Assembly (NCBI GenBank): GCA_043798915.1
Contig: JAZDOG010000100.1
Location: 34,122 to 98,121 of the forward strand
Length of the DNA: 64,000 nt
Reading direction: 5' to 3'
Source of the DNA: Pseudomonadota bacterium
GTDB lineage: Bacteria > UBA10199 > 2-02-FULL-44-16 > JAAZCA01
The position numbers were made by a program, and so were the translations under genes. The notes below the pieces were generated by a model, which saw nothing but the letters and a program-made list of their open reading frames with translations, did no database searches and was not told where the DNA came from. Positions 20,263-62,728 of this stretch are shown in pieces (position 1 is the first letter of the stretch; the number at the start of each line of letters is the position of its first letter).

Positions 20263-20288
20263 TTATCGTCAGACGGAGCAAAGTATGC
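20263..20288 (-). promoter_or_regulatory. degenerate sigma28-like promoter
   Basis: GCATACTT-N10-GACGATAA. Confidence 0.4.
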
Positions 20289-20346
20289 GGTCGATAGAAA
20301 CCGGGGCTGGCTTACTGACTGGGGTGAGGACCCCCCGTTTATGGGG

Positions 20347-21255
20347 TCAGGGAACGGTCTGGACAGAGGGCGCGCCATCTTCAGGCGCGGGCAGCCCATC
20401 CTCGGGCATCGGGGCCTCGGGCGCACCCGGCGGGACCTTCCCCTGGAGGAGCTCGATCACCTGATCGGCATATCTGTTGGATTTGACGGCATAGAAATGG
20501 ATCTGGTCGCCGATGATCGTGAGCGAAATGAAGAGCAGGAGGATGCCGACATACCCCTTCACGTGAAATCCCAGCTCCCAGACGTTGATCTGCGGCGCGA
20601 CGCGGTTTGCGATGCCCAGTATTATGTCTGCAAGAAAGATAGCGATGATCACCGGCGCCGCCATCTGCAGCGAGATGTAGATCACCTCGCCCGTGATCCT
20701 CATGAAGAGGTCCATCAGCGGGAAAAACCCGGGGCCAGCGATCGGCAAGCCGAGCACCGGCAAAGTTTTGAAGCTGCCGAAGCAGGAATCCAGAAAGGCG
20801 AGGTGCCCTCCGAGGACGAGATAGAGGACTACCCCCAGCTGGAAGAGGAATACGCCCGACATCGACGCCTGCTCCCCGAGCTGGGGTATGAGGAGCCGCG
20901 CGATGGACATGCCGCGCTGGTTGTCGATCATCTGTCCCACGGCGGCGAAGGCGTGGAAGATGAAGGACACGGACATGCCTATCGAGAGGCCGTAGAATAT
21001 CTCCTTGAGATAGAGGACCACGAGGGCGAGCAGGTCCTGCGAGAGATTCGGAGGGGTCTTCGGGACGATGTGCGGGTAAACGAAGATGGCCAGCACTATC
21101 GACGCCCCGACCACGACATATTTCGGCACCGGCTTGCCGAAAAGGAATGGAATGACCGACGCCATCATGAGCACCCTGACCCAGATGAGCGACAGGAAGA
21201 TCAGATGGAACGTAACATTGATATTGACGCCGATTTTGCCGAGGAAGTCTTGCAT
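20347..21255 (-). CDS. sctT: T3SS export apparatus SctT (FliR family)
   Basis: AVGQMIDNQRG, GIANRVAPQINV. Confidence 0.92.
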   Translation of the reverse strand: MQDFLGKIGVNINVTFHLIFLSLIWVRVLMMASVIPFLFGKPVPKYVVVGASIVLAIFVYPHIVPKTPPNLSQDLLALVVLYLKEIFYGLSIGMSVSFIFHAFAAVGQMIDNQRGMSIARLLIPQLGEQASMSGVFLFQLGVVLYLVLGGHLAFLDSCFGSFKTLPVLGLPIAGPGFFPLMDLFMRITGEVIYISLQMAAPVIIAIFLADIILGIANRVAPQINVWELGFHVKGYVGILLLFISLTIIGDQIHFYAVKSNRYADQVIELLQGKVPPGAPEAPMPEDGLPAPEDGAPSVQTVP

Positions 21256-21270
21256 GATTTTGGCTGTCAG

Positions 21271-21537
21271 CTAATGCACATACGTCGCGAAGGAGCCGTA
21301 GATCGAGGCGGTGAATGCAACGAGCTGCGCGAGCATCCATGGCCCCGCGATGGCCAGCGTCGCGACGATCGCGAAGAGCTTGGGCACAAACGTGAGGGTC
21401 TGCTCCTGGATCTGCGTCGTCGCCTGCAGGATGCTGATGGTGAGGCCGACGAGCATGGCGACCAGCACCGGCGGCCCCGTGAGGACAAGCGCCAGAAACA
21501 GCGACTGCTTTGCGACGGCGATAAAATATTCAGGCAT
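21271..21537 (-). CDS. sctS: T3SS export apparatus SctS (FliQ family)
   Basis: VGLTISILQATTQIQEQTLTFVPK. Confidence 0.95.
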   Translation of the reverse strand: MPEYFIAVAKQSLFLALVLTGPPVLVAMLVGLTISILQATTQIQEQTLTFVPKLFAIVATLAIAGPWMLAQLVAFTASIYGSFATYVH

Positions 21538-21542
21538 AGCGA

Positions 21543-22313
21543 TCAAACATACCCAAGGATCAGGCCCTTTGCGATGATATGCCACCCGTCCACCAGGACG
21601 AAGAGCAGCAGCTTGAACGGCAGCGAAATCGTGATCGGCGAGATCTGGAACATGCCCAACGACAGCAGGATGTTGGCGATCACGAGATCGATCACGAGGA
21701 ACGGCAAAAAGATGATGAAGCCTATCTGGAAGGCCTCCGAGAGTTCGCTCACGACGAACGCGGGCACGATGTTGATGAAGTCCTGATCGGTGATCTCCGC
21801 CCTGTCTTCGTCCGTGGTCCGGAGTTTCAGCGCCAGGCTGTAGAAGAGGGTGCGCTCGGCCGGGTGCACGTGCTTGAGCAGGAACTTCCTCACCGGCTCC
21901 TTGGCCTCTCCCGCGCCCTTGGCCAGGAGCTGGATGGAGACCTGCGAGAGGAGGGGCTGATTCGTCCCCTGGTTTATCGTCTCGCCGGCGGCGCGGTAGA
22001 CGTCGTAGCCCACCGGGACCATGATGTAGATCGTGAGGATCATCGCCAGCCCCGTGATGACGATGTTGGGAGGAACCTGCTGAGTGCCGATGGCATTCCT
22101 TATGAGAGACAGGACCACCGCGATCTTGACGAACGAGGTGATCATCATGATCAGGATCGGCACCATCGCCAGGACTGCGAGCACTATGAGCAAAACCAGC
22201 GGCTTCGAGATGCCCACGGAACCGGCCTGAGCATACGCAACCCCGGACAGCCCCAAACCCGCGAGCGACGTCAGGGAGCAAATCACCAGTTTCTTTTTCT
22301 TGTTCGCTTTCAT
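21543..22313 (-). CDS. sctR: T3SS export apparatus SctR (FliP family)
   Basis: TSFVKIAVVLSLIRNAIGTQQVPPN; PFKLLLFVLVDGW. Confidence 0.96.
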   Translation of the reverse strand: MKANKKKKLVICSLTSLAGLGLSGVAYAQAGSVGISKPLVLLIVLAVLAMVPILIMMITSFVKIAVVLSLIRNAIGTQQVPPNIVITGLAMILTIYIMVPVGYDVYRAAGETINQGTNQPLLSQVSIQLLAKGAGEAKEPVRKFLLKHVHPAERTLFYSLALKLRTTDEDRAEITDQDFINIVPAFVVSELSEAFQIGFIIFLPFLVIDLVIANILLSLGMFQISPITISLPFKLLLFVLVDGWHIIAKGLILGYV

Positions 22314-22663
22314 CGAGCGTTAATCGGATTGCCGTTTTTGGCCTCCGACTCGGAAATCTCAGCGACGAGGCTTATACCATGATCCGCAACTCCTATCACC
22401 AAATATCTTCCGCCAACCTGAACCAGGTAGAGCGACTTCCTCGGCTCCAGCATGTGGCGCCCGAGAATATTGAAATAGCGCCCCTGCTGGAAGCGCTTCA
22501 TGGCGCCGATGCGCGGCGCGGCGTACTTGAGGATCAGGATTGCAGAGACGCTAACGATCCCGAGGACGAGGAGCATCTTGATGAAGAGCCACGTGAAATC
22601 CACGGCGTTCGAGCCGGTCGGCTCCACCGTAGGAATTTGAGCCAGCATCAAAGCTATATTCAT
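22310..22663 (-). CDS. fliO: FliO-like protein
   Basis: One TM helix then LEPRKSLYLVQVGGRYLVIGV; directly upstream of sctR. Confidence 0.85.
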   Translation of the reverse strand: MNIALMLAQIPTVEPTGSNAVDFTWLFIKMLLVLGIVSVSAILILKYAAPRIGAMKRFQQGRYFNILGRHMLEPRKSLYLVQVGGRYLVIGVADHGISLVAEISESEAKNGNPINAR

Positions 22664-22685
22664 CGGTTATCTCACATGGCACAGC

Positions 22686-22750
22686 TGTCATTCCCGCGAA
22701 AGCGGGAATCCCGTGGATACAATGGGATTCCTGCTTTCGCAGGAATGACA
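22686..22750. repeat. REP-like palindrome doublet, family B (GTCATTCCCGCGAAAGCGGGAATCC)
   Basis: Inverted pair of hairpins; related copy at 53615-53672. Confidence 0.8.
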
Positions 22751-22780
22751 AAATACGTGCCCATTATTGGTTAAAGATCA

Positions 22781-23263
22781 TTAACGCACCATTTTGAGAA
22801 TGCGCACGCCCATCTTCCCTTCCATCTCGACTAACTCGCCGCGGGCGATAAGCCTGCCGTTTGCGACGAGATCGACGGTCTCCCCGGGCGCCCGCCCCAG
22901 GTCGACGACCTGGCCCACGCGATATTTGATGAGCGCGCCCACATCGGTCGTCATCTTGCCGATCACCGCCACGAGGTTCACTGGAACATCGGGGGCGAGT
23001 TCGGCGAGCTCGTCTGCAAGCGTGCGCGCGGCGGTTGTGCCATCGGATACCGGCGGCTGCGCGCGGACCTCCGGCGAAAGGCCGGAGATCGGCTCGTCCA
23101 TGCCAGTCATTTCCTCATTCTCACCCACTATCGTATTCCCGGGGAGAAGGCCCTCCTCCTCATGTGCCGGGGCAGGGAGGCTCGCGTCCTCTTCCATTTC
23201 CTCAAAGGCCTCGAAGTCCTGGCTTTCGAGCGTTTCCGATGTCTTCTCGTTGCTCTTCTTCAT
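22781..23263 (-). CDS. FliN/SctQ-C (SpoA-domain) protein
   Basis: DVPVNL...VDLVANGRLIARGELVEMEGKMGVRI; acidic N-terminus. Confidence 0.88.
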   Translation of the reverse strand: MKKSNEKTSETLESQDFEAFEEMEEDASLPAPAHEEEGLLPGNTIVGENEEMTGMDEPISGLSPEVRAQPPVSDGTTAARTLADELAELAPDVPVNLVAVIGKMTTDVGALIKYRVGQVVDLGRAPGETVDLVANGRLIARGELVEMEGKMGVRILKMVR

Positions 23264-23264
23264 G

Positions 23265-24191
23265 TCAATCTCCCTTATGGATGCCGGATATGCTGCAGAG
23301 GACGCGCTTATCGTCGACTGCCACTTGAGCATCGATGCCGCCGTGCAGGCCGTCGCCCACCCTGAGGACCACCGAACCCGACGGGCGGCCGTCCTCGAAC
23401 ACCATGGAGCTTTGATCGAAGATGATCACGTCCCCGTCCTCAAGCTCGGCCAGGTCAGATGCGGCAAGCGTCGTCCTGCCGGCCTCCGCCCACAGCGGCG
23501 AGCGGATGTAGCCGAAACGGGCAAGCTGCCCCGCCCTCCAGTCGCGCTCTCCCTTTCTGATCTCGCCCGGAGCCTCCACGCAGAGCATCCCCTCTTCGAC
23601 GAACGGATCCGGAAGCGCGAGCCTCACGAAACCGGAATGCGACCCCAGCGCGACGCGGAAGGTGAGGACCGCTACGCCGTCCTCCGCCCCGGCCAGATCG
23701 CGCATCTCGTGCGGCCCGAAGGCGAAGCGATCGAAGCGGAAATGGACGCGCGCGTCCTTCCCGCAGAGCCTGTGGATGTGCGCCATGATCTGGAGGATCA
23801 GATATTCAAGCACCCCCTGCTCCGTGTCCGAGAGGACGCGCGGCTCAGGATAAGTCTCCGTCCGGCCGCCCAGGAGCCGCTCCACGGCAAGCTGGGCCAG
23901 CGGCGAATCGATCTCCACGATCGCCCCGCGCGAGAGTGGGGCAAGCCCCACGACCGCCATGACCGCCGGCTGCGGTATCTTCGACAGGAATGAAGAATAG
24001 GTCTCCTGGTGAACCGCCGATAGCTGAAACGAGAATTCCTCGCCGACGTGCCGCGCTATGGCCTCGCCGACGCCCTTGGCAAAACCCTCGCGGAGACCAG
24101 TGGCCGGCAGATATTCGTGGACGGCGCGCAACAGTTCCTGTTCGCGCCTGGAAACTTTCTTGAGCCTGAAATGGAAAGGTTTGGTGGCCAT
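23265..24191 (-). CDS. sctQ: FliM-like/SctQ C-ring protein
   Basis: LAVERLLGG...LSDTEQGVL FliM-type middle domain plus C-terminal SpoA-like region. Confidence 0.75.
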   Translation of the reverse strand: MATKPFHFRLKKVSRREQELLRAVHEYLPATGLREGFAKGVGEAIARHVGEEFSFQLSAVHQETYSSFLSKIPQPAVMAVVGLAPLSRGAIVEIDSPLAQLAVERLLGGRTETYPEPRVLSDTEQGVLEYLILQIMAHIHRLCGKDARVHFRFDRFAFGPHEMRDLAGAEDGVAVLTFRVALGSHSGFVRLALPDPFVEEGMLCVEAPGEIRKGERDWRAGQLARFGYIRSPLWAEAGRTTLAASDLAELEDGDVIIFDQSSMVFEDGRPSGSVVLRVGDGLHGGIDAQVAVDDKRVLCSISGIHKGD

Positions 24192-24221
24192 GTCGTATCG
24201 CGTGATGCGTGACGGAATATA

Positions 24222-25001
24222 TCAGCTTACGATGATCTCATCAACCTCAATGCCCTTCTTCTGAAGGGCGTCACGGATCGCCCCGGCGTTCTTCTCGAAC
24301 ACCGCGCGGCCCTTCTTGTCGGCGGTCCTGAAGTGGACGCTGACCTTGCCGTCGCGCGAGGTGACGCGAAGCTTCAAGCCCCTGAACACGTTCTCGTGCA
24401 GGTCCATCTGCATCTCTTTCTCGCCCTTGCGGTTGATGCCGATGCGCACGTACTGGACTATCTTGTTGAGGATCTGCTGGGTGATCGCCGGCTGATGCGC
24501 AGCATCGGCGCCCTTGAGCGACGACTCGAGCTTGGCCGCGAACTTCCCCTGCAGGTCGACCGGGACCGACTTCGCGGCGGACCTGGAGAGCGCCCGGGAG
24601 AGTTCCCGCCTGCCGGCTGTGCCGTAGCCCCCTTGGCGGGAGCCATCCGAACCGCCATGCTGCTTCGTCTGCGCCTTGGACATCACCTTATGGCCGGCAA
24701 ATCTGGCCTCCGCGCGCTCACCCTTCTGGCGCGAATCCCTGCGCCCCTTGCCGTCATCCTCATCGCGCCGGCGATCCTCGCCATGGCGTTCATCGTGCCT
24801 GGCCGCCTCCCGGATCGCCTCCTCGGTGACGGTCTTCGACTGGGGCTGGGTGGTCTGTGTCGGATTCGATGCCAGTCGGCTCCGCTCGAGGATCTTGTTG
24901 AAATCGGCATCCTTGGGGGGAGTGCGCACCGGCTCCTTCGACATATCGCGAAGCCTGTCCTCGCGCGCCATATCAACTTTTTTGGTATCGTCGATGGTCA
25001 T
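24222..25001 (-). CDS. sctP: SctP/FliK-like length-control protein
   Basis: Disordered N-terminus, C-terminal FliK-like domain ending IRDALQKKGIEVDEI; position after sctO. Confidence 0.7.
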   Translation of the reverse strand: MTIDDTKKVDMAREDRLRDMSKEPVRTPPKDADFNKILERSRLASNPTQTTQPQSKTVTEEAIREAARHDERHGEDRRRDEDDGKGRRDSRQKGERAEARFAGHKVMSKAQTKQHGGSDGSRQGGYGTAGRRELSRALSRSAAKSVPVDLQGKFAAKLESSLKGADAAHQPAITQQILNKIVQYVRIGINRKGEKEMQMDLHENVFRGLKLRVTSRDGKVSVHFRTADKKGRAVFEKNAGAIRDALQKKGIEVDEIIVS

Positions 25002-25013
25002 GGACGCCTCACT

Positions 25014-25544
25014 TTACCTCTCAAACACCGACTTCTCCCCCCGCCACCTTCTGAGCTGATGGATCGTCCCGCCGAGTTCGTCCATCTCGCGCTCCTCGCG
25101 GCGGTTCAACTCGCCCTGTATCTTCTTTTCCCAGAGCTGCTTGTGCTTCTCCATTATCTGGAGCGCCTTTGCGGCGTCGATATAGGCTCGGCGGGCGCGG
25201 GCCACTTCCTCCGTGCAATCCTCGATCACCTGTTTCTGATCCTCTATCTCCTCTTTCTTGGCCTCTTCGTCATCCTTGAGGCTCCTCAAGAAATTCACAT
25301 GGACATTGCCCTCTCCGACGTGAGCGCCGCGGGCCATTTTCCCCTTCATCTCGGTCCGGGCCTTCTTCCAGCGCTCCACGATCCGATCCTTTTCCTCCTC
25401 CAGCTCCTTCAGTCGGTCCTTCGCCTTTTTGAGGGCGATGAGGGCGCGGGCGAGCACGGACTCGGCCCGCTTCTTCATCTGGGTCTTGATGGTCAAGAGC
25501 GCCTGCAGCCTGTATCTTTGCTTCGCCATAGTCACATCACTCAA
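25014..25544 (-). CDS. sctO: SctO/FliJ stalk protein
   Basis: YRLQALL, long coiled coil, EEREMDE; follows sctN. Confidence 0.85.
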   Translation of the reverse strand: MSDVTMAKQRYRLQALLTIKTQMKKRAESVLARALIALKKAKDRLKELEEEKDRIVERWKKARTEMKGKMARGAHVGEGNVHVNFLRSLKDDEEAKKEEIEDQKQVIEDCTEEVARARRAYIDAAKALQIMEKHKQLWEKKIQGELNRREEREMDELGGTIHQLRRWRGEKSVFER

Positions 25545-26868
25545 ATATCCCCTTCAGCATCGCTATCGAGTCTTCGATGGACACGGGCTCGTCGACGCTC
25601 TGTTTGAGGAAGTTATTCACCTCCTCGATCTTTTCGATGGCGTAGTCGACCTTTGGGTCGCTCCCCTCTTCATACGCGCCGATGAGGATCAGGTCGCGCT
25701 CCTTCTCGTAGTTTGCCACGACCTCGCGGAGCTTGCGCGCGGCGTCGCGGTGGTCCTCATCCACGATCGAGTCCATGACGCGGCTGATGCTCTCGGAGAC
25801 GTCGATCGCCGGATAGTGGCTGCGCGCCGCAAGCGCCCTGGAGAGGATGACGTGCCCGTCGAGTATCGAGCGCGTCTCGTCGGCCACCGGCTCGTTCATG
25901 TCGTCGCCCGCGACGAGTATCGTGTAAAACGCGGTGATTGAACCCTTGTCGGAGTTGCCGGATCTCTCGAGGAGCCTCGGGAGCGTGGAAAAGACCGACG
26001 GCGTGTAGCCCTGCCTCGCCGGCGGCTCGCCAACCGCAAGCCCCACCTCGCGCAAGGCCCTCGCAAAGCGCGTGATCGAATCCATCATGAGCATCACTTT
26101 TCTGCCCTGATCGCGGTAGTACTCGGCGATCGCCGTCGCCACATACGCCGCCTTGAGCCTGACGAGCGAGGGCTGGTCTGAGGTCGAGACGATGACGACG
26201 GAGCGGGCAAGCCCCTCTTCGCCGAGATCCTGTTCGATGAAGTCGCGCACCTCGCGGCCTCGCTCTCCCACGAGGCAGATGACGTTGATGTCGGCCTCCG
26301 TGAAGCGGGCGATCATGCCGATGAGCGTGGACTTGCCCACACCCGCTGCCGCGAAAAAACCGACGCGCTGACCTTCGCCCACGGTGAGCACCGCGTCGAT
26401 CGCCTTGATGCCGACCGATATCGGCTTTGTCACGCGCTCCCTCTTCATCGCCTCCGGCGGATTGGCCGTGACAGGATATTCCGCTGAAAACTCGAGAGGC
26501 CCCTTCTCGTCGATGGGGTCGCCCAGACCGTCTAGTATCCTGCCCAGGAGCCCGTCCCCCACGCGCACGGTGAGCGTGTGGCCCGTAGGAATCACGTCGT
26601 TGCCAAGGCCAATCCCCTCGAGTTCACCCAGGGGCATCAGCAACACTTCCTGGTCGCGGAACCCCACGACCTCCGACTTGATGGGCGTGCGGCCGTGATG
26701 CGGGATGATGAAGCAGAGCTCGCCGATGCGGACGCCGGGCACGACTGCGCGCACGACGATGCCCGTGAGTTCCGTCACCTTTCCCTTGATGTTGTAGGTC
26801 GATACCGCCGAGAGGAGATGGTGGTATTTGTGAAAGTCGACAACCGGCAGGTCGCCCTTTTTATCCAT
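25537..26868 (-). CDS. sctN: T3SS ATPase SctN
   Basis: AAAGVGKST, GERGREV, DSITRFARA, LERSG, ILDGH. Confidence 0.97.
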   Translation of the reverse strand: MDKKGDLPVVDFHKYHHLLSAVSTYNIKGKVTELTGIVVRAVVPGVRIGELCFIIPHHGRTPIKSEVVGFRDQEVLLMPLGELEGIGLGNDVIPTGHTLTVRVGDGLLGRILDGLGDPIDEKGPLEFSAEYPVTANPPEAMKRERVTKPISVGIKAIDAVLTVGEGQRVGFFAAAGVGKSTLIGMIARFTEADINVICLVGERGREVRDFIEQDLGEEGLARSVVIVSTSDQPSLVRLKAAYVATAIAEYYRDQGRKVMLMMDSITRFARALREVGLAVGEPPARQGYTPSVFSTLPRLLERSGNSDKGSITAFYTILVAGDDMNEPVADETRSILDGHVILSRALAARSHYPAIDVSESISRVMDSIVDEDHRDAARKLREVVANYEKERDLILIGAYEEGSDPKVDYAIEKIEEVNNFLKQSVDEPVSIEDSIAMLKGIFE

Positions 26869-27535
26869 TATTCACCCCGAGCGCTTTTCTGATCGCTGCC
26901 AATTGCGTCTCGATCTGCGCGTCGATCGTTCCGACCTCCGTCTCCACGACGCAGCCCCCTTTGGCAATCGCCCCGTCCTCACGGAAGAGCAGGCGGCGGG
27001 TTTTGTCCAGGAGATCGCGGAACTCATGCTCGCCTGACATCATCGACTTGTAGTCTTCGGGATTGAGCTTCACGGTGATGCGGTCCCCCAGCGCTTTTTC
27101 GAGGGCCTGATGCACCACGCCCTTTATGAGCTCCGGATTTTCTGCGGCCGCGCGACCTATCACCTTCTCGGCTATCGACATCACGAGCTTTATGACCTCT
27201 GGCTCGGCCTGGTCGTAGAAGTTCCGGCGCAGCTCGTCCAGCATGATCAGCTTCTCGGTCACCTGGGCCAGCCCCTTCGATTCTCCCTCGGCATATCCTT
27301 TGCGGATCGCCTCATCGCGCCCGGATTTTGCATCCTCGAGGACGCGCCTGGCCTCATCGCGTATGCGCCCGGCCTCCTCTTCGGCGGCGACGAGTATCTT
27401 GTCCGCCTGGCCCTGCGCATCCATCACGCGCTTGTGGACCACGCCGCCGGAATCGGGGATCGCATCGGCCACATGGCGCGCATGCGCCGCGCCGCCCTTG
27501 TCAGCACCGCCGCCCTTTATTATCTTCGCAGCCAT
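26861..27535 (-). CDS. sctL: SctL/FliH stator
   Basis: GYAEG..KG, GGCVVETEVGTIDA. Confidence 0.92.
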   Translation of the reverse strand: MAAKIIKGGGADKGGAAHARHVADAIPDSGGVVHKRVMDAQGQADKILVAAEEEAGRIRDEARRVLEDAKSGRDEAIRKGYAEGESKGLAQVTEKLIMLDELRRNFYDQAEPEVIKLVMSIAEKVIGRAAAENPELIKGVVHQALEKALGDRITVKLNPEDYKSMMSGEHEFRDLLDKTRRLLFREDGAIAKGGCVVETEVGTIDAQIETQLAAIRKALGVNNG

Positions 27536-27557
27536 CTCGAACTCCTTTGCCTCTTTT

Positions 27558-27594
27558 CCCTCTCCCCTGGTGGGAGAGGGTCAGGGTGAGGGGG
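27558..27594. repeat. REP-like palindrome, family A
   Basis: CCCTCTCCC.CTGGT.GGGAGAGGG.TCAGGGTGAGGGG. Confidence 0.7.
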
Positions 27595-27628
27595 AATTTC
27601 TATCTGTGTTTGTAGCACACGGCGGGCA

Positions 27629-28696
27629 TTATGCCAACTGTTGGACGCTGGACAGGCTGGCAGTTATTTCGTCGGAAATCCCCCCGGAAGCCGGCTCCCC
27701 AGAGTCTGGAGAAGGTGTTTCAGAGGTAAAAAAGCGGCCCCATGAGGGGTCTATGCGGCCATCCTCAGCGAGCGACGCCACGATCCAGAGGATCATGTCC
27801 CTGCGCTCGGCCGCGAGGGCGCGGCGAGGGCAGATCCGGCGCTCGTCTATGAACCTCTTCAGGAGATAGCCATCCGAGGGATCGAGCCTCTGCTGCAGGA
27901 GCCTCACGAGCCTTGTGTGCTCATCGCCGAGCGCGCTGGCGAGGGCCGCAAGCCCGAACCTCATCAGCATTCCGTCGGGGCCGACGCGCCTGCCCTCAAC
28001 CTCGAGGACTGTGAAGCGCGCCTGCCGCACGAGTTCTGGCGAGATGCCCCGCATATCCCTCATCCGGCCCTGAAGGCGCTTCGCATCCTTGAGCTCCAGG
28101 CGGTTCAGCACCACGTGCAACACCTTGCCCGCCATGCCGGTGAGGGCAATGCCGAGCTCCGTAAGGCCTGCCTCGCGGATGACCTCCTCGAGGTCCTCCC
28201 CCTTGAGATAGTAGAGCTTCGAAAAATCGAATTTACCGATGGCGCGCGATACGGGCATCGGCAGAAAGTGGCGCTCGAAACGGCGGCGTATCACCTCGAG
28301 GACCGGGGCCGCCACGGCGAACGATTCGACCATATTCGGGAGCTGGGCCCGAAGCATCGGCGGCATGTTCTTCAAGATGTAGCGCACGTGCTGCGACGGA
28401 AGCGAGCGGAGTATAATGCCGATCACCCTCGGCGGCTCTTCGCAGAGGCGCTCGAGTATCCAGGCCGGATGCACCTCGGCGAGACTCGAAAAGCGTTCGG
28501 CGGCGACCGCCTGCCTGATGAGCTGCTGCGCCCTGTTCTCGCGATCGGCCCCTTCCGAATATAGCGCGATGAGATCCCCGCAGACGCCGCGGTTGGAATC
28601 AGACATGTAGTCGGCGATCTCCGCGGCATCCGCACCGCCGTGGAGCACAGCCATCGCCGCCAGAACCCGCTGTCTGTTGCTCAAGTGGCTATCCAT
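27629..28696 (-). CDS. FliG-like/SctK-position protein
   Basis: EEPPRVIGIILRSLP resembles FliG-M EHPQxxAxILSxL; lies just upstream of sctL. Confidence 0.6.
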   Translation of the reverse strand: MDSHLSNRQRVLAAMAVLHGGADAAEIADYMSDSNRGVCGDLIALYSEGADRENRAQQLIRQAVAAERFSSLAEVHPAWILERLCEEPPRVIGIILRSLPSQHVRYILKNMPPMLRAQLPNMVESFAVAAPVLEVIRRRFERHFLPMPVSRAIGKFDFSKLYYLKGEDLEEVIREAGLTELGIALTGMAGKVLHVVLNRLELKDAKRLQGRMRDMRGISPELVRQARFTVLEVEGRRVGPDGMLMRFGLAALASALGDEHTRLVRLLQQRLDPSDGYLLKRFIDERRICPRRALAAERRDMILWIVASLAEDGRIDPSWGRFFTSETPSPDSGEPASGGISDEITASLSSVQQLA

Positions 28697-28715
28697 AAAC
28701 TCCTTGTGCCTTTAT

Positions 28716-29210
28716 TTACTGCACCTGCGTGTTGAGCACATTCTTCACCGAAGAGACTGCATTTTCAGTGACCTTCACCGTGAGCTCCGTCATCTGGGAA
28801 AAATGGAAGACGTGCGCCTGGATGACGAGCAGCTCCTGGTTGGAGAATTTCTTTCCGCTGTAGAGGACGTGATTGACGAGGCTGTCCATCTGCATCTGAC
28901 CCTTGTTGACCTCGCCCAGCATGTCCAGCACCTTCTCTGATGCTGCCGGCTTCGAGAGGTCGGTCGCGTCCGTCGCGGGCGTGAAATCGACGCCGTCACC
29001 GCCCAAGGACTCGACGCTGGATGTCGGACTGATGTCCTGATTGCCTCCGACTCCCATCGTGTTGGCAAAATCCGCGCCGCTGTCCATCTGCGCGAGCATA
29101 TCCTTGAAATTGGATCCCTGCATCTGCGGCTTCGCCATCTCATCGGACTTGATGGACGCCTTGGCCAGGGCTTCGCTCGAAAGTTTGCTGACTATCGCTT
29201 CGATCGCCAT
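28716..29210 (-). CDS. sctI: SctI/HrpB2-like inner rod protein
   Basis: C-terminal ELLVIQ...ELTVKVTENAVSSVKNVLNTQ. Confidence 0.7.
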   Translation of the reverse strand: MAIEAIVSKLSSEALAKASIKSDEMAKPQMQGSNFKDMLAQMDSGADFANTMGVGGNQDISPTSSVESLGGDGVDFTPATDATDLSKPAASEKVLDMLGEVNKGQMQMDSLVNHVLYSGKKFSNQELLVIQAHVFHFSQMTELTVKVTENAVSSVKNVLNTQVQ

Positions 29211-29213: not shown

Positions 29214-30086
29214 TTACTCCTCGTCTCCCCCTTCGTTTTCCGGCCTTGCTGCCGACCGACCGCGGATGCGCTTGAAGAGCAGCGACAGGGCGCGCGCATG
29301 GAGCCTCGATGTCCACGACTTCGAGAGCCCCAGCTTCGTCCCCACATCCTCGAGCGTCCGATTTTGAAAGTAGTACATCATGATCAGCTGCTTCTCCTTC
29401 TCCGGCAGCGTGCCGATGGCGTCGCGCATGTGGCGCCTGACCTGCATGAACTCGGTGCGCTGCTCGACGTTCGTTGCGTTCGTGTCCTCGACGTCAGAGT
29501 CCTCGGATGCGTCGAGCGAGATGATGTAGATGGATGCCAGGCTGTTGACGGTCTCGGCGATGACGTTCTCGTCACCCTCGAACACGCTGCTCTTGTTGGC
29601 GACCGTCCCGCCGCCATGGAGGGATTTGTTCTGCAGGTACTCGTTCGCGGCCTCATCGAACTTGATCTTCGCGTACAGCGTGCGCGGCAGCCAGCCGCTG
29701 CGGCGCAGGCCGTCGTATATCGCGCCCTTGACCCGGTAGTATGCGAATGTCTTGAAGTCGACGTCCTGGGCCTCGTCGAACCGCTTGGCCGCTTCGAGGA
29801 GCCCAAGCCTCGCGTTGCACAGGACCTCCTCGTAGTCGACGGCTGCTGAAAGGCTCTGGCAGACGCGGTTGGCGATCGAGGCAGCATAGGGCATGTATTG
29901 GTTGATGATATCATCTCGTTTTTTGAGCGCCGCGAACTCCTTCTTCGTTACCTCCCGGCCGCCCGCCTGTCTCTGCCTCGCCGCTTCCGCCGCCTTGCAC
30001 GCCTCTTCCCTGGCCCTCTGGCGCGCGCGCAGCTCGAGTTCCTGACGGGTGGGCTTCCTGAGTGCTTTCGGCGCCGCCTTGAACAT
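29214..30086 (-). CDS. fliA: FliA/WhiG-family (sigma28) RNA polymerase sigma factor
   Basis: GLLEAAKRFD, FKTFAYYRVKGAIYDGLR, region 4 LSKSWTSRLH. Confidence 0.9.
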   Translation of the reverse strand: MFKAAPKALRKPTRQELELRARQRAREEACKAAEAARQRQAGGREVTKKEFAALKKRDDIINQYMPYAASIANRVCQSLSAAVDYEEVLCNARLGLLEAAKRFDEAQDVDFKTFAYYRVKGAIYDGLRRSGWLPRTLYAKIKFDEAANEYLQNKSLHGGGTVANKSSVFEGDENVIAETVNSLASIYIISLDASEDSDVEDTNATNVEQRTEFMQVRRHMRDAIGTLPEKEKQLIMMYYFQNRTLEDVGTKLGLSKSWTSRLHARALSLLFKRIRGRSAARPENEGGDEE

Positions 30087-30149: not shown

Positions 30150-30165
30150 TGCAGAAAGCGTGCCA
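30150..30165 (-). promoter_or_regulatory. sigma54 promoter of fliA-like/T3SS operon
   Basis: TGGCACGCTTTCTGCA; IHF-like AAACAGTGCGTTA about 30 nt further upstream. Confidence 0.75.
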
Positions 30166-30393
30166 GCCCGGGGGGCTTGAGGGCCTACTTTCCTAACGCA
30201 CTGTTTTTAAGGAGGTTATCGATCGGACAAAGCGTCAGACGGAGCAAATCAAAGGGATCGGGGCAGCCATTTTTGGGGGGAGGAAACCCCAGAATAAAAA
30301 GCCGGCACCCCAATTTCTGGGCTCAAATGAGCGATAGGCATTTCGTGGAGGTAAATATAGATAAAGGGGACATTCCCTTTGTCCTTTTGTTCA

Positions 30394-31948: not shown

Positions 31949-32338
31949 TCAACCCGCCTTCTTCGCCTCCGGGATGTTCTTCATTATCGCATCCGTCATA
32001 GCATAGCGGGCATGGTCACGGATGGATTCAGGAAACGTCCCCAGGGACTTCTCGACATTCGATTGCCAGACGGGAGTCAGCTTTTCCAGATTTTCCCTTC
32101 CTTTTACCGTCATCATCGCTTCAAGCGCCTTGCGGGTTTGTTCGCGCACCTGAGGGAGGCTCTCGCTCTTGCGACCCACTAACATCGCCAACTCACTGGC
32201 AAAGTTCGCGTCGGGAATTGCGGGCGAACCATATCCGGATTTCGGCGCTGCACTGGGAGCCTCAGTCCTGCTGGCTCCTTGCGGTGCAATGCTTTCTATT
32301 GAATTTTGACGAGTGGATCCGATCGGTGTCAGCATCAT
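31949..32338 (-). CDS. hypothetical T3SS-cluster protein
   Basis: RBS GAGGTG; Ser/Ala/Pro-rich N-terminus; co-oriented with neighbours. Confidence 0.65.
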   Translation of the reverse strand: MMLTPIGSTRQNSIESIAPQGASRTEAPSAAPKSGYGSPAIPDANFASELAMLVGRKSESLPQVREQTRKALEAMMTVKGRENLEKLTPVWQSNVEKSLGTFPESIRDHARYAMTDAIMKNIPEAKKAG

Positions 32339-32346
32339 CACCTCGC

Positions 32347-32813: not shown

Positions 32814-32842
32814 TTATCGGCCGGGAGGGACCCTGAAGTTGC
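32814..32842 (-). promoter_or_regulatory. sigma28-like promoter
   Basis: GCAACTT-N14-GCCGATAA. Confidence 0.75.
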
Positions 32843-32877: not shown

Positions 32878-32904
32878 CCATGTAACTATCTGATTTTAAA
32901 CAAC

Positions 32905-34955: not shown

Positions 34956-34984
34956 TTATCGGCAGGGGCACTACCCGAAGTTGC
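34956..34984 (-). promoter_or_regulatory. sigma28-like promoter
   Basis: GCAACTT-N14-GCCGATAA. Confidence 0.75.
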
Positions 34985-35360: not shown

Positions 35361-35416
35361 ATGGGGGAAGATAACAAAAGGGTCAGAAAAAGCAATCGCC
35401 GAAAAACCGACCCAGA

Positions 35417-51760: not shown

Positions 51761-53431
51761 TTAACGGCCTTTTTTCTGTGCTGCCATGAGCGCTTTTTCA
51801 ACGAATGTTTCAGCCTGATGCCCACCTAAAAAACGGTCGAAGGAAAAGATGAAGCTAAAAGAGATCGGGCGACCTCCATTTTCCATCGCATAACCACAGT
51901 AACTCCTTACCCCATGAATGTAGCCCGACTTGAAGAATATTTCCCCTCTGAACCGCCCCCCTCCGAATGCCCGTGCAGTTGAGGGGCCACCTCCCCCTCC
52001 GGAATGGGCAAGCGAGTGTTGAAAGCTCCCAAAAACTGGCTGAGTCGACATGAAGCCCAACAGCTCCGACAGAACCTCGGAGGAAATGCTGTTCATGCGC
52101 GAGAGCCCGCTTGCATCAGCAAGCGTCACGCTGGAGGTATCGATCCCTGATGCCCGGAGAAATTCTACGATGGCATCGAGGCCTCCCTGGAGGCTCCCCT
52201 CATGACCTGTTTCGACTGCCAATGCGCGCGCCAACATTTCGGCATAGAGGTTCACACTTTTGCTGTTCGTCACGCGGATGATATCCTTGAGCGGTGGCGA
52301 GGCAATATCGCCGAGCTGCTGCGTGTTATGATCGCTGCCTTCCGAATAATATATCGAACTTACCGATATCGTGACTCCATCCGCTTCGAGCTTCTTTTTC
52401 AAAGCACGCCCTGCAAAGAGAGCGGGCTCTGGAATTGATCCTTTGATTGCAAACTCCCTGACACCGGCCGGAACCGTCCCCTCCAGCGCGTCGTGGTATT
52501 CTCCCGGCAGACGGCGCACATAGCCATGATCTCCGGAACCCGTCTCCCCAGTCTTCATGTTATTTGTGAACTGCAATCCCTTTATTTCCGGTTCTGTTCT
52601 GAGAAGTGCGGCAGGATCACCCGGTTTTTCCCCCGGCTTAAAAATCAGCCGAAACTCATTGTTGTTGATGGAGAGGGCGTCGACCGGAGCGGCGTAATAA
52701 TTGCCGAGATCATCGTCGGTCCAGCTGGCAGGCACTGAGGGGCCGCTGAAGCGGCTGTTATCAACTCTGACACTTCCTTCAATGTGTCTGATCCCGGCAC
52801 GGTGAACAAAACGACTGAGCTGGGCAAGAACCCCGTCCATAGACTGCGAGCCGTTCACCATGCTTGACCCGAGCGTTGGATCTCCTCCGCCGGCGAGGAC
52901 CAAATCTCCATAAAGGGTGCCGCCCGCGATCACACCCGTGTGATAGAGCTGTGTATGAAAACGATAGTCCTCTCCAAGCGTCACCAATGCGGCGGCGGTC
53001 ACAAGGGTTTTTAGAGAAGAAGCCGGTGCGAGGGGGGCGTTCCTGGCCCAAAAGGCCACACCCTCTCCAGTGTCCATGTATCTCATGCTTGCAGAAAAAT
53101 TTGCGCCGGGCAGATTTTGGTTCCGGAAATAAGCCGAATCTGCGGCATGGTCAGAAAAAAATCTCATCCTTGCCACATAAGGAGGGGATCTTCTCAGGTC
53201 TTCGAAGAGGATCTTATTATCAGCAGAAAACACTTTACTCAGCTGAGCGTATTCACTGTCATCGATAAACCCGGGGCTCTTTTTGTTGATCGCATCCGCC
53301 AGCATAGAAACAGCCGAGGACTCCTCCGAGGGCAATGCTTGCCTTAAGCATTCCCCATCGATGCGGCCGCGTTCAGCGTAAGCATTTCTGATCCAGTCCG
53401 CCGGTTTTCCAGGCATTTCACATCTCGCCAT
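51761..53431 (-). CDS. dacB: DacB/PBP4 (peptidase S13) D-Ala-D-Ala carboxy/endopeptidase with non-signal N-terminal extension
   Basis: PASSLK (SxxK), GGDPTL, SVN, DASGLSR, KSG. Confidence 0.9.
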   Translation of the reverse strand: MARCEMPGKPADWIRNAYAERGRIDGECLRQALPSEESSAVSMLADAINKKSPGFIDDSEYAQLSKVFSADNKILFEDLRRSPPYVARMRFFSDHAADSAYFRNQNLPGANFSASMRYMDTGEGVAFWARNAPLAPASSLKTLVTAAALVTLGEDYRFHTQLYHTGVIAGGTLYGDLVLAGGGDPTLGSSMVNGSQSMDGVLAQLSRFVHRAGIRHIEGSVRVDNSRFSGPSVPASWTDDDLGNYYAAPVDALSINNNEFRLIFKPGEKPGDPAALLRTEPEIKGLQFTNNMKTGETGSGDHGYVRRLPGEYHDALEGTVPAGVREFAIKGSIPEPALFAGRALKKKLEADGVTISVSSIYYSEGSDHNTQQLGDIASPPLKDIIRVTNSKSVNLYAEMLARALAVETGHEGSLQGGLDAIVEFLRASGIDTSSVTLADASGLSRMNSISSEVLSELLGFMSTQPVFGSFQHSLAHSGGGGGPSTARAFGGGRFRGEIFFKSGYIHGVRSYCGYAMENGGRPISFSFIFSFDRFLGGHQAETFVEKALMAAQKKGR

Positions 53432-53454: not shown

Positions 53455-53481
53455 TTGTCGGCAGATCGGCGGAAAAGTTGC
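53455..53481 (-). promoter_or_regulatory. sigma28-like promoter of dacB-like gene
   Basis: GCAACTT-N12-GCCGACAA then RBS AAGGAG. Confidence 0.7.
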
Positions 53482-54500: not shown

Positions 54501-54645
54501 CTCACACCTCCTGCCACATTGAAGTGGTCTGCCTACGTAGCCACTGCTTTATTATCGCTATTTAGCGGATTTTGATACTAGTTTTTTTGTAAAAAATAGT
54601 CTTATATTTCAAGTTCTTATATAAGCGCATCCACCACCTTCCTTG

Positions 54646-60956: not shown

Positions 60957-60985
60957 ACTCTTCTGACTCGATAATAATCCACCTT

Positions 60986-61195
60986 TTATTCACATCTGTG
61001 GAAAAAACGGCCCCTTCGATCGAACATTTCAGATTCGTCAAACCTAACCATAACACCTCAATTTTTATTAATTTATAGTGCCTAATAATTAGGCAACCCG
61101 GACAAAGGCACTTTTGGGTCAAATATCTGGAGGGCAATCGTCAGTTATGCACAGACTTATCCCTAAGAGCTGTGAGAAATTCTCATTGTGGAATT
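60986..61195. other. DnaA-box cluster around AT-rich tract (oriC/datA candidate)
   Basis: TTATTCACA 60986, TGTGGAAAA 60997, TTATGCACA 61145, TTATCCCTA 61157, TGTGGAATT 61187. Confidence 0.45.
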
Positions 61196-61211
61196 GATAT
61201 AATAAAAGGTG

Positions 61212-62657
61212 TCAGGAGTGTGCTTCGGATGCATCCAGTTCCAGCTCGGGAATCACATCCCATTGGCCATTTTCCCGATCATCTTCACGCCCATCGCGGC
61301 CACGATGCTGCTCATCTCCGGAATATCCACGCTCCCGCGACGGCTCGATGTCGCCTCTCCGGCGCATCTCGGCATCTGAATGGCGATCCGCGCCGATCCA
61401 GGCAATGATCTGTGCGAGAGGCGGCATGCACCCCACGCCCCGTTGCGCATATGCGATGTCGAACGCATCCATATCGCCGCAGAATGTCGAGCAGGCAATG
61501 GGCTCGATGTTCCTGTGGGCAACGCCGCCGTCGAACGCCACGCCGTCCGAGGCGCGCTTCCTGCCAGAGGCGAATGGATGTCCTTCGGTCGTGTGCCCTG
61601 GCCCAGCCTTTGAGTGGGACTTCGTTCTGAGAAAAGCCGCGAGATCGTTTCGCTCGCCATCGCCGCGCACGCTGATGCCTGCGATTTGACCCTGACGAAT
61701 GCCGTGCGGCGAGGGAACGTCAGGCACGCTGTTGGATTCGAATTCAAGGAACGGGACAAACCACGCATATGATGCAAACCCTGCATCGATTGCGATATCA
61801 GCTGTCCGGTCGCTCCCTGCCGCCCCCCTCGAAGCCGGAACTGCTGCCGCTGCCGTCCTGTCGTTGTCATGAGCCACAGCACCGGCGGAAAAGGGATTGG
61901 CCGATATCTGCTGGGCGTCCGCTCCCGCGGCACCCTGCCCCATCGCCGCGGCAGACTCAAACGCCTGCTGTTCCAGTTTTTCAGCGGTCGCCATTGCGTC
62001 GATCGCGCTGTCGCCATCCGCAAGCGCCTTCTCGCCAGGCGCTTCGGGAACAAGCCGTTTTTCTGCAACCGCGTTGAGCGCCCTATCCACAGCGACAGGC
62101 GCTGCATCGTCTTTCCTTCCAGGTTTATCGGCAGCAGCTGAATCTTTTTTCGGAATATTCGTTGAATCGGATTTCGACTTTGCAGTCATGGAGCTCGCAT
62201 CAGCGAAGCGTTGCGCGTTCCTCTCTGTCTCCGCAGCGCTGTCCCTGCAGACGAGTTCCTCATAATGGCGCCTAGGCATAACGCAGGCCGCCTGCTCCTC
62301 GGAGCAATACCCGCTCTCGGCGCTGGACAGCTTTTCGGCCTTGCCATTCTTCTCTGAGCGCTTGTGCCCTGAGGATTGTGCAGCGACGATCTCCTTGACG
62401 CTGAAGATAAAATTGCCGCCGTCGCGATTCACCTCGACCGGGCCGCCGACAGTCAGGATAGCAACCGGCACATCGCCGTTTTTGAAAACGACGGCGCCGT
62501 TGTCTTCGTGAGCGGCCTTCAGCGCAACGCCGAAGCGGTTTTCGAGATAAATCCTTACCTGCTCTATCTCATCCTTGGCAGGATCAGGTTTCGGAGGAGC
62601 GCCCCAAAGGCGGTCTACCAAGAGGTTGAATTGTTCTATCGGATCGAAGTTGAACAT
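61212..62657 (-). CDS. low-complexity orphan protein, candidate T3SS substrate
   Basis: 481-aa ORF, Ala/Asp-rich, preceded by sigma28-like motif. Confidence 0.6.
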   Translation of the reverse strand: MFNFDPIEQFNLLVDRLWGAPPKPDPAKDEIEQVRIYLENRFGVALKAAHEDNGAVVFKNGDVPVAILTVGGPVEVNRDGGNFIFSVKEIVAAQSSGHKRSEKNGKAEKLSSAESGYCSEEQAACVMPRRHYEELVCRDSAAETERNAQRFADASSMTAKSKSDSTNIPKKDSAAADKPGRKDDAAPVAVDRALNAVAEKRLVPEAPGEKALADGDSAIDAMATAEKLEQQAFESAAAMGQGAAGADAQQISANPFSAGAVAHDNDRTAAAAVPASRGAAGSDRTADIAIDAGFASYAWFVPFLEFESNSVPDVPSPHGIRQGQIAGISVRGDGERNDLAAFLRTKSHSKAGPGHTTEGHPFASGRKRASDGVAFDGGVAHRNIEPIACSTFCGDMDAFDIAYAQRGVGCMPPLAQIIAWIGADRHSDAEMRRRGDIEPSRERGYSGDEQHRGRDGREDDRENGQWDVIPELELDASEAHS

Positions 62658-62700
62658 GTCGTAGATGGGCTGATGCCCAAGGGCACCGCTCCTATCATTG

Positions 62701-62728
62701 TTATCGGCAGAAACAACTCAAAAGTTGC
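62701..62728 (-). promoter_or_regulatory. sigma28-like promoter
   Basis: GCAACTT-N13-GCCGATAA; IHF consensus TATCAAGCAGTTA at 62746-62758. Confidence 0.7.

Follow-up and report, generated by a model that had tools for sequence, protein, structure and literature searches.

A predicted sigma-28-family regulon with a re-tuned −35 box in an uncultured bacterial phylum

Does a short two-box motif that recurs on one strand of a bacterial contig form a promoter class and, if so, which factor would read it and what do the genes behind it share? The question arises in a 64,000-nucleotide stretch of a Pseudomonadota bacterium genome (hereafter the window), which is contig C20:34122-98121 of a 2.34-Mb assembly in 105 contigs that is 97% complete (G000 in our genome set), and which holds a secretion gene cluster with a sigma factor gene of its own. 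The motif has the consensus GCAAC(T/A)(T/A)-N12-14-GCCGA(T/C)AA. The original prediction, made from the letters of the window, took it for a sigma-28-like signal that marks late genes and orphan effectors of a type III secretion system and that may be a genome-wide barcode of its substrates. Here, the motif with its numbers, orientation and conservation, the inventory of sigma factors, the difference in the recognition helix, and the sigma-54 promoters are computed directly, and they point to the regulon of a sigma-28-family paralog, which would act through a re-tuned −35 box, appears conserved across an uncultured phylum, would stand under sigma-54, and would serve late parts of the secretion machine together with about 75 other promoters.

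Exact searches for GCAACTT-N10-16-GCCGATAA return three matches in the window (32814-32842, 34956-34984, and 62701-62728; spacers N13/14), all on the minus strand, compared with none in each of 100 dinucleotide shuffles, and GCCGATAA alone occurs nine times against 2.0 expected. With a position weight matrix (PWM) trained on 49 intergenic matches from the whole genome, and with spacers of 11-15 nt allowed, five sites reach a score of at least 14 in the window (31.0-38.3), and we refer to these as promoters A-E. Promoter A (32814..32842, minus strand; GCAACTT-N14-GCCGATAA; PWM 31.0) lies 5' of a gene for a 141-aa protein, and its operon probably continues towards the sigma gene. Promoter B (34956..34984, minus strand; GCAACTT-N14-GCCGATAA; PWM 33.9) precedes a Gly-rich "needle-like" gene, a TPR gene, and a SctJ/FliF-family gene. 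The remaining three lie 5' of an 848-aa orphan (promoter C, 37984..38010, minus strand; the variant GCAACAA-N12-GCCGATAA; PWM 35.8), an extra PBP4 (dacB-like) copy (promoter D, 53455..53481, minus strand; GCAACTT-N12-GCCGACAA, which differs by one letter; PWM 34.7), and a 481-aa orphan (promoter E, 62701..62728, minus strand; GCAACTT-N13-GCCGATAA; PWM 38.3).

These are the five main sites of the original prediction, all recovered on the minus strand as exact or variant matches, and the distance of 20-45 nt to the gene that it gave is close to what we measure, i.e. a gap of 5-43 nt after the −10 box before the first plausible start. The next-best score in the window is 11.0, at 40861 within a helicase gene, which is the level of the control. 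Two "degenerate copies" that had been listed alongside the five do not belong to the class. The one at 20263..20291 (minus strand) scores −0.1 and overlaps a copy of an unrelated repeated motif, GCTCCGTCTGACG, upstream of a sigma-54 promoter, and the presence of that motif explains the false resemblance. The other, at 54552..54580 (minus strand), is 5' of an FGE-sulfatase-like gene and scores 2.9, although five further FGE-sulfatase-like genes elsewhere in the genome do carry strong motif sites.

Across the genome, the strict pattern has 37 matches and a slightly relaxed pattern has 53; all 53 carry GCCGA(T/C)AA by construction, while PWM sites tolerate one change. At a PWM score of at least 14 we find 83 sites, compared with a single one in the reversed (but not complemented) genome used as control, and at a score of at least 16 the numbers are 82 and 0. 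Using a rough gene caller based on codon-usage scoring (2070 genes), 79 of the 83 sites are intergenic and 4 lie inside called genes. The sites are also strongly oriented. Followed in their own direction for up to 300 nt, the first boundary is a gene start for 62 sites and a gene end for 1, with nothing called for 16 and the 4 intragenic sites making up the rest; in the opposite direction, the first boundary is a gene end for 41 and a start for 27. Open reading frames (ORFs) of at least 45 codons start no more than 260 nt downstream of 80 of the 83 sites, and the other three sites are 103-291 nt from a contig end. Several sites with nothing called precede long ORFs of atypical codon usage that the gene caller missed or clipped.

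Most sites (64) have 12 nt between the 7-mer and the 8-mer; 9 sites have 13 nt, another 9 have 14 nt, and 1 has 11 nt. The matrix also prefers an A/T-rich stretch and "CAC" just 5' of GCAAC, as well as a "T" before and "tA" after GCCGATAA. Otherwise conservation is confined to the two boxes, with flanks and spacers that differ at every site, which argues against a dispersed repeat. Taken as a sequence class, the sites support the view that the motif is a bipartite promoter of sigma-28 type.

The nine promoters with a 14-nt spacer form a recognizable subclass. Their spacers are G+C-rich (mean G+C in this genome of 0.66, vs 0.41 for the 12-nt class) and often start with (T/C)(A/G)GGG. Both secretion-cluster promoters and that of a gene for an SLT lytic transglycosylase belong here, with members also on contigs C12, C28, C46, C73, C76, C92, and C104. 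Promoters of this class may need something extra, e.g. a higher level of the sigma factor or a co-factor. In the same-family genome G018, several targets with 14-nt spacers share N-termini like those of the 14-nt targets in G000.

The motif is not restricted to this genome. Among 93 species-level genomes of the phylum (1.1-4.6 Mb), the exact motif is present in 86, with 0-54 copies in each (37 in G000) and more than 1000 matches in total, whereas the backwards control yields 3 matches across all 93. We also compared 13 loci around orthologs of the cluster sigma gene (L005-L017), which come from public metagenome-assembled genomes titled "Deltaproteobacteria bacterium", "Pseudomonadota bacterium", "bacterium" and, in one case, "Victivallales". 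The motif lies directly 5' of the 141-aa ortholog in all relative loci (9 of 9) where both that gene and the DNA upstream of it are present, and 5' of the Gly-rich ortholog in all close loci (8 of 8). These loci differ from the window and from each other in most other respects, i.e. protein identity is 42-66%, G+C is 0.46-0.60, and the sequence of the spacer varies between loci. At both positions the spacer is 14 nt long and G+C-rich in nearly all relative loci, as it is in the window.

The exact pattern becomes rare in more distant families. There, GCAACT...CGATAA(T) is found 5' of the Gly-rich gene in 15 of 18 loci (families f5, f6, f8, and f15-f18), and one of the blanks is a 106-base stub; this arrangement indicates that the conserved core is GCAAC(T) plus CGATAA. 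Relative L011 has two extra orphan genes (231 and 202 aa) between the 141-aa and sigma genes, each with a promoter of its own (7221-7249 and 9046-9074), and these insertions indicate that genes can enter the regulon when they arrive with a box or acquire one.

Comparing the two boxes with those of sigma-28 indicates what kind of factor would recognize them. In enteric bacteria the −35 consensus of sigma-28 is TAAAGTTT, and at the majority spacing the −35 box of the motif, GCAACTTT, is identical to it in five of eight letters. For sigma-28 of Pseudomonas aeruginosa, the available text of a structural study from 2026 (PMC12784957) gives a −10 element GCCGATAA at −15 to −8, a −35 element TCTAAAG at −36 to −30, and base-specific −35 contacts by Ser224 and Gln228 of region 4.2. 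The −10 box of the motif, GCCGATAA with its core CGATAA, is the same sigma-28 box, just as had been claimed from the window, and the sigma-28 spacing (11 nt from the 8-mer) is kept in 64 of 83 sites. By contrast, the −35 box is GCAACTT(T) and not of the TAAA(G) type.

The sigma factor encoded in the cluster (29214..30086, minus strand) has Sigma70_r2 and r4 domains and is the proposed reader of the motif. The best of the 56 NCBIfam models that match it is FliA_WhiG (TIGR02479), and its closest solved relatives are WhiG (6PFV, 5.9e-25), P. aeruginosa FliA (9WSF, 2.7e-24), E. coli FliA (6PMI), and Aquifex FliA (1RP3). It does not resemble an ECF (group 4) factor, since the matching families are FliA/WhiG and then SigB/F/G, and a linker of region 3 length is present. 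The genome has only four genes of the sigma-70 family (by region 2), including this one. The others are an RpoH-like factor (275.5 bits, above the subfamily cut-off of 241), one ECF factor, and a 602-aa open frame with sigma-70 region 2, which no scan names and which we take as RpoD by its size. Because these three look like RpoD, an RpoH-like factor, and an ECF factor, no other plausible reader is left than the cluster sigma, the factor to which the original prediction had linked the motif. Taking this together with the nature of the boxes, we consider it quite probable that the motif defines a class of promoters for an RNA polymerase whose sigma factor is the FliA/WhiG-family protein of the cluster.

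The sigma factor differs from its relatives where a changed −35 box would lead one to look. In a HMMER alignment, the recognition helix S-E-S-R-V-S-Q-L-H of P. aeruginosa FliA lies over S-K-S-W-T-S-R-L-H of the window sigma, so the canonical region 4.2 helix (S-E-S-R-V-S-Q-L/I-H) is not present. Because Ser224 and Gln228 stand four residues apart, the alignment suggests a retained Ser224 (S257), an Arg in the place of Gln228 (R261), and a Trp in the place of the Arg beside the Ser (W258). The helix L-S-K-S-W-(T/V)-S-R-L-H is shared by the window sigma and 13 orthologs (59-81% identity), save one Ser-to-Cys change in L013. An altered specificity of the sigma had been proposed from the −35 box alone, and the altered helix gives it a structural correlate. 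The proposal stands insofar as box and helix both differ from the canonical ones; yet the box is not an unrelated one, given the letters that GCAACTTT and TAAAGTTT have in common. On sequence grounds, (CAC)GCAACTTT is best described as a clade-specific derivative of the sigma-28 −35 box, apparently matched by the altered region 4.2 helix. The sigma also carries an N-terminal extension of about 50 residues (29937-30086, minus strand), rich in Lys, Arg, Ala, and Glu, which is absent from canonical FliA and is present but variable in orthologs. In public protein collections the subfamily comprises more than 120 clusters at no less than 60% identity, labelled "sigma-70 family" or, automatically, "FliA".

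The factor is a paralog whose presence is not tied to flagella. Searches of the 97%-complete assembly with Flagellin_N and Flg_bb_rod return no match, and no flagellin, motor, or chemotaxis family, i.e. none of the targets of flagellar class 3 promoters, is found among the 80 proteins downstream of the sites. Elsewhere in the phylum, flagellin is present in 12 of 93 genomes (11 above cut-off), and a second sigma-28-family gene, 26-34% identical to the first, occurs in 9 genomes, of which 6 are flagellin-positive (26-29% identical). In five of them (G010, G064, G074, G082, and G083) the second gene lies on the flagellin contig. A GCAAC-type promoter is found in 0 of 14 flagellin upstream regions, several of which have TAAAG-type boxes instead; upstream of flagellin, L120 and L121 carry TAAAGTTT followed by a CCG-type box, and L115 carries CTAAA-N15-GCCGATTA. 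The pattern is suggestive of two sister sigma factors held apart by their −35 boxes.

The cluster that encodes the sigma factor also encodes an export apparatus. Downstream of the sigma gene, 20347..29210 (minus strand) holds genes for a 164-aa protein and for FliG-like, FliH, ATPase, YscO/FliJ, FliK-like, FliM, FliN, FliO, FliP, FliQ, and FliR proteins, assigned by Pfam above gathering scores (e.g. FliG_C 33.7 bits, FliM 71.7, FliO 54.0, and Flg_hook, the FliK type, 33.1), and this segment holds no sigma-28-like site. The genes stand in flagellar order (fliF, G, H, I, J, K ... M, N, O, P, Q, R), yet those for filament, hook, and rod are absent. As in an injectisome, FliP/Q/R, ATPase, FliH, YscO, and YscJ/FliF families are found, as is FHIPEP, and flagellin and rod families are not; unlike in an injectisome, the switch parts of FliG, FliO, and FliM type are retained. 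Judged by these families, the secretion machine looks intermediate between a flagellum and an injectisome.

The genes behind promoters A-C lie upstream of the sigma gene on the same strand. Promoter B is followed by the Gly-rich protein (179 aa, 34382..34921), a TPR protein (33870-34286), and the YscJ/FliF-family (SctJ) ring protein (32905-33873), the last two assigned by Pfam and conserved in gene order among relatives. The Gly-rich protein has a conserved C-terminal helix in alignments, and in a structural model (mean pLDDT 56) only the helix 127-178 is confident; it has no family match and, in a profile search against PDB sequences, no meaningful match there. Its "needle-like" label is a guess from position, composition, and the terminal helix. 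Of the 93 genomes, 56 have an ortholog, and where it and the sigma gene are both listed on one contig, they lie about 3 kb apart. The protein stands where a filament or needle subunit might be expected.

Promoter A is followed by the small 141-aa protein with a hydrophobic segment (32347..32772), which matches no Pfam or NCBIfam family and whose orthologs in 10 relative loci are 44-65% identical. Between it and the sigma gene are a fast-evolving 130-aa protein (31949..32341), whose positional counterparts in relatives have 115-132 aa and 17-23% identity, and a thioredoxin-TPR protein (30394..31848; Pfam Thioredoxin 1.2e-10) that finds no tblastn match in relative loci L005-L017. As a candidate anti-sigma, the 130-aa protein family was modelled in complex with sigma residues 50-285 (12-row alignment), and the runs scored 0.47, 0.00, and 0.00. 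Behind promoter C are the 848-aa orphan and a 97-aa gene (35067..37963, minus strand), neither of which matches a Pfam or NCBIfam family; relatives retain the 97-aa gene, and the 848-aa protein has no relative in the 13 relative loci (tblastn, E ≤ 1e-4).

The sigma gene has a promoter of another type, which the original prediction had missed. A sigma-54-type element, TGGCAC-N5-CTGCA, with the GG-N10-GC signature, lies about 60 nt 5' of the sigma ATG (30150..30165, minus strand), and such an element precedes the orthologous gene in every relative locus (13 of 13). A GGGG-N6-CCCC palindrome (30275..30290, minus strand) lies about 110 nt upstream of this promoter, with a like element in 8 of 8 relative upstream regions viewed (including L007-L012 and L015), which we regard as a candidate site for a sigma-54 activator. 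A second sigma-54-type promoter, TGGCAT-N5-TTGCA (20189..20204, minus strand), precedes a 366-aa gene (19019-20119), the next downstream of fliR. Their candidate activator, by proximity, is an FHA-domain protein (15257..16648, plus strand; Sigma54_activat 8.6e-69, FHA 4.2e-20, HTH_8; NifA/NorR-type in NCBIfam), whose gene lies 13 kb from the sigma promoter, in a stretch that the relative loci do not reach, and adjoins that of a PEGA-domain Ser/Thr kinase.

From this arrangement we infer an operon structure and an order of events. The sigma-54 promoter, probably fired by an enhancer-binding protein, would drive the sigma gene and the export genes behind it. The sigma factor would then fire promoters A, B, and C and the dispersed sites, i.e. 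some 80 promoters across the genome. Its targets would include outer or late parts of the machine (the Gly-rich helical protein, the TPR protein, the SctJ-family ring, and the small membrane protein) and a set of accessory products, some perhaps secreted, among them signal-less orphans, cell-wall hydrolases, proteases, FGE-sulfatase-like paralogs, and proteins of c-di-GMP signalling. Because promoter A is upstream of the sigma gene and in the same direction, positive feedback is possible.

To describe the regulon, we assigned to each site the longest ORF that begins no more than 260 nt from it, and so obtained 80 proteins. A Pfam family is found for 30 of them at E ≤ 1e-4 and for 22 at E ≤ 1e-10. 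At the latter threshold, the only one at which the comparison was made, 58 of 80 targets have no Pfam family, compared with 10 of 65 random genes (the 68 genes called in five random 16-kb stretches, less three that are targets). Families that are recognized include cell-wall enzymes (PBP4/S13 peptidase, SLT lytic transglycosylase, and M15 (DUF882) peptidase), proteases and others (two subtilases, M16 peptidase, a zincin-like peptidase, a CAP-domain protein, and TSP3-repeat proteins), and c-di-GMP proteins (a HAMP-GAF-GGDEF cyclase, a PilZ protein, and a DnaJ-PilZ protein), along with five FGE-sulfatase-like proteins, CarD, peptide deformylase, a NYN nuclease, TPR proteins, and a 1979-aa FHA protein. 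The regulon is thus rich in accessory, fast-changing genes.

Whether the targets are also depleted of exported proteins is another matter. Judged by a crude rule based on hydrophobicity, 66 of 80 have N-termini that do not look like signal peptides; the 14 that have a signal-peptide- or lipoprotein-like one, several with lipobox-like cysteines, correspond to about the genome rate (443 of 2070 genes). The motif precedes secretion-cluster genes and many signal-less orphans, as had been claimed.

Behind promoter D is the extra, divergent PBP4/DacB paralog (51761..53431, minus strand; Peptidase_S13 E 7.7e-81), in which about 100 additional aa come ahead of the S13 domain and the N-terminus does not resemble a signal peptide. 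PBP4 enzymes are expected in the periplasm, which makes a signal-less copy unusual. This copy is 26-31% identical to those of eight relatives and 30% identical to the second copy in G000, and the motif precedes this copy only, being absent from the second copy and from the copies of the eight relatives. The statement that the motif is rare before housekeeping genes is borne out by this comparison, in which the housekeeping-type copy has no site. Behind promoter E, the 481-aa orphan (61212..62657, minus strand) belongs to no Pfam or NCBIfam family, and a search of the other 21 genomes in the order gives nothing at E ≤ 1e-10.

Many targets share a start of the form M-x-(A/G)-(A/G)-G-(D/E)-x-K-(I/V) or M-x-x-P-P-K-V-G. 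A simplified version, ^M.[AG][AG]G, occurs in 9 of 80 targets compared with 5 of 1878 other genes, a contrast to be read with the caution that the pattern was chosen post hoc and that several carriers are paralogs. Carriers of M-x-(A/G)-(A/G)-G belong to unrelated families, such as CAP-domain, FGE-sulfatase-like, and giant 2635-aa proteins (on contigs C80, C76, C85, C102, C92, C20 outside the window, and others). As an export tag for the phylum the pattern fails, with 0 of 28 motif-driven ORFs in the distant G089 and 2 of 30 in G018; it is a local lead, not a general tag.

Two further sets of sites in the genome deserve mention. A strong site (37.4) lies inside the dnaG frame (C103:8764-8791, plus strand), 1.3 kb upstream of the presumed rpoD, and may be an internal promoter feeding the primary sigma gene. 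On contig C83, a single intergenic region has two strong sites that face away from each other (11576, minus strand, and 12399, plus strand), and the divergent genes encode proteins of 1109 and 1245 aa with signal- or lipoprotein-like N-termini and no Pfam family.

How far, then, does the motif label secretion substrates? On the narrower reading of the original prediction, every match would mark apparatus or substrate of a type III system, and there is something in its favor: of the five sites in the window, three belong to the secretion cluster; both window orphans, like the extra PBP4 copy, are specific to the lineage; and the regulon has the excess of family-less proteins, the many signal-less N-termini, and the (post hoc) M-x-A/G-A/G-G start described above. 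The make-up of the regulon speaks against it, however. Sec-type or lipoprotein-like proteins are about as frequent among the targets as in the genome, and the targets also take in the HAMP-GAF-GGDEF cyclase, the two PilZ proteins, CarD, peptide deformylase, the NYN nuclease, and the site inside dnaG upstream of rpoD. The Gly-rich N-terminus, several of whose carriers are paralogs, does not hold up in G089 or, beyond a weak trace, in G018. The presence of Sec-type proteins and of cytoplasmic or membrane regulators indicates a regulon rather than a substrate list, and we regard a genome-wide substrate barcode as unlikely.

Two other explanations question the promoter or its reader. RpoD, the RpoH-like factor, the ECF factor, or a transcription factor on a two-part operator might recognize the motif, with the neighboring sigma gene a coincidence, and it is true that the link between sigma and motif is drawn from sequence and that a sigma present throughout the phylum leaves no room for a co-occurrence test. 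Yet the −10 half is identical to the sigma-28 box, which is unlike the boxes of RpoH, ECF factors, or sigma-70; the strict orientation and the short distance to the start codon fit a promoter better than an operator; and in each of the relatives compared, a pair of sites flanks the cluster to which the sigma belongs, so that we rate another reader as very improbable. Remnants of a dispersed repeat or mobile element, without regulatory function, could account for the many copies per genome, in a genome that has other short dispersed repeats too. But only the two boxes are conserved, while flanks, spacers, and spacer length vary, the copies keep their positions relative to orthologous genes across genomes of 42-66% protein identity, and nearly all of them (79 of 83) lie outside coding sequence and point at gene starts; the chance that they are such remnants is close to nil.

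Reading the motif as the promoter class of the cluster sigma has its own difficulties. Orthologs of the sigma (50-82% identity) are found in 91 of 93 phylum genomes and in 63 of 63 high-quality ones, and this near-universal presence means that sigma and motif presence cannot be correlated. The sigma scores 130 bits against a cut-off of 189.6 for FliA_WhiG, and a spacer range of 12-14 nt is unusual for one sigma factor. The single FHIPEP (SctV/FlhA) gene is on contig C42, with no site of PWM ≥ 6 within 12-21 kb, and the regulon would therefore not cover the whole machine. A search of the genome for the anti-sigma FlgM (PF04316) gave sub-threshold matches only (E 0.32 and 0.59), although small fast-evolving proteins could escape it. 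Among sequencing runs, none was listed that contains positions 32000-38200 of the window, RNA runs included. In addition, the gene calls, start codons, and signal-peptide calls come from crude, purpose-made scripts.

Hierarchies that run from sigma-54 to sigma-28 are familiar from the flagella of Vibrio, Pseudomonas, Campylobacter, and Helicobacter, and the putative circuit has the same layout, with a sigma-54 promoter before the sigma-28-family and export genes, a sigma-28-type promoter before an outer component, and an enhancer-binding protein nearby. To the extent that the predicted cascade mirrors this hierarchy, the word "late" in the original prediction is apt. The present machine is not a flagellum, however, its candidate activator has an FHA and not a receiver domain, and no export-coupled anti-sigma is identified. 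HrpL and BtrS are ECF (group 4) sigma factors encoded in type III clusters, where one shared box serves apparatus and effectors and has been used for genome-wide effector prediction. A cluster-encoded alternative sigma is common to these systems and ours, but theirs belongs to group 4 and reads other boxes, whereas the one described here is a group 3 relative of FliA/WhiG.

The closest known case is Bdellovibrio bacteriovorus, where, according to the available text of Karunker et al. (2013; PMC3627812), TTAAG-N16-CCGATA is found in 92 of 140 mapped attack-phase promoters and FliA is proposed as a global attack-phase regulator. As is predicted for the genome described here, with its 83 sites, a two-box promoter of sigma-28 type drives a large and mostly non-flagellar programme. 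Proteases, many uncharacterised proteins, and c-di-GMP signalling are part of both programmes, while that of Bdellovibrio also involves surface proteins, and its cells are small (PMC3627812). Bdellovibrio is flagellated and, as far as that text goes, its FliA still serves the flagellum, whereas our host has no flagellin or rod genes detected. Its case differs also in that here the sigma is a separate paralog, the −35 box is of GCAAC type, and the predicted regulon includes a non-flagellar secretion machine; and its promoters were mapped by experiment, while ours are read from DNA alone.

Canonical sigma-28 class 3 promoters of E. coli, Salmonella, and P. aeruginosa, as presented in the available text of PMC12784957, share with the motif the −10 box GCCGATAA, the geometry, and the family of the sigma factor. 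Differences from them are the −35 box GCAACTTT instead of a TAAAG type, the probable exchanges of Arg to Trp and Gln228 to Arg in the helix, the score below that of the family, the N-terminal extension of some 50 residues, and a set of targets without flagellar genes, in a genome in which FlgM is not found. Chlamydia trachomatis resembles our host in keeping sigma-28 without flagella, next to a type III secretion system and sigma-54 (PMC12282069). In the available part of that paper, chromatin immunoprecipitation sequencing (ChIP-seq) assigns to the chlamydial sigma-28 two promoters (hctB and tsp), outside the secretion system and with an E. coli-like sequence, unlike the roughly 80 promoters, changed −35 box, and secretion-cluster genes described here. 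Re-use of the sigma-28 family off flagella is likewise known from Streptomyces WhiG and from FliA of non-flagellated Legionella, with targets that are sporulation or virulence traits and, in the accessible text of these sources, no link to a flagellum-like secretion cluster (PMC12871210, PMC5655016). Abby and Rocha (2012; PMC3459982), so far as their available text shows, place a Myxococcales system that has no motility parts at the base of the injectisome tree; the cluster described here retains more flagellar parts than that system. Our literature search, which excluded supplements, found nothing on the motif, on a GCAAC-type −35 box, or on the secretion system of this phylum.

With about 80 sites per genome and presence in 86 of 93 genomes, so sharp and conserved a signature would allow co-regulated gene sets to be read in a phylum that is uncultured. 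A sigma-28 paralog that works off the flagellum with a changed −35 box, beside a second family member in flagellated relatives, would be a natural case of promoter insulation. Because the sigma appears tied to a filament-less machine with flagellar switch and export parts, it also bears on the origin of the injectisome and on how the sigma-54 to sigma-28 hierarchy is inherited, and the bias of the regulon to orphans, cell-wall enzymes, and proteases is a lead to lifestyle. A much bolder view is that the phylum, whose genomes are small, runs a whole cell-contact or attack programme through one re-tuned sigma-28 paralog, which arose from the flagellar regulon and has stayed in a half-flagellum, half-injectisome machine, that the box predicts late parts and cargo, and that the machine is a living intermediate on the way from flagellum to injectisome with its regulatory wiring intact. 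We consider this doubtful as a whole; if it were true, a cargo with lineage-specific orphans and a signal-less cell-wall endopeptidase would suggest delivery into other bacteria, not into eukaryotes.

Besides the promoter class, the window holds copies of the second short dispersed motif, (ttt)GCTCCGTCTGACG, at 20269-20281 (minus strand), 30232-30244 (minus strand), and 10895-10907 (plus strand). Both sigma-54 promoters of the cluster have a copy 74-79 nt upstream of them, and a near-copy is found upstream of the sigma gene in relative L010. Its core, CTCCGTCTGA, has 37 copies in the genome, mostly intergenic, and some form divergent pairs about 46 nt apart. Among its housekeeping genes, the window also contains ordinary toxin-antitoxin-like modules, i.e. 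two HEPN/nucleotidyltransferase pairs (42334-43304 and 47964-48674, minus strand) and an AbiEii-like nucleotidyltransferase (45449-45898).

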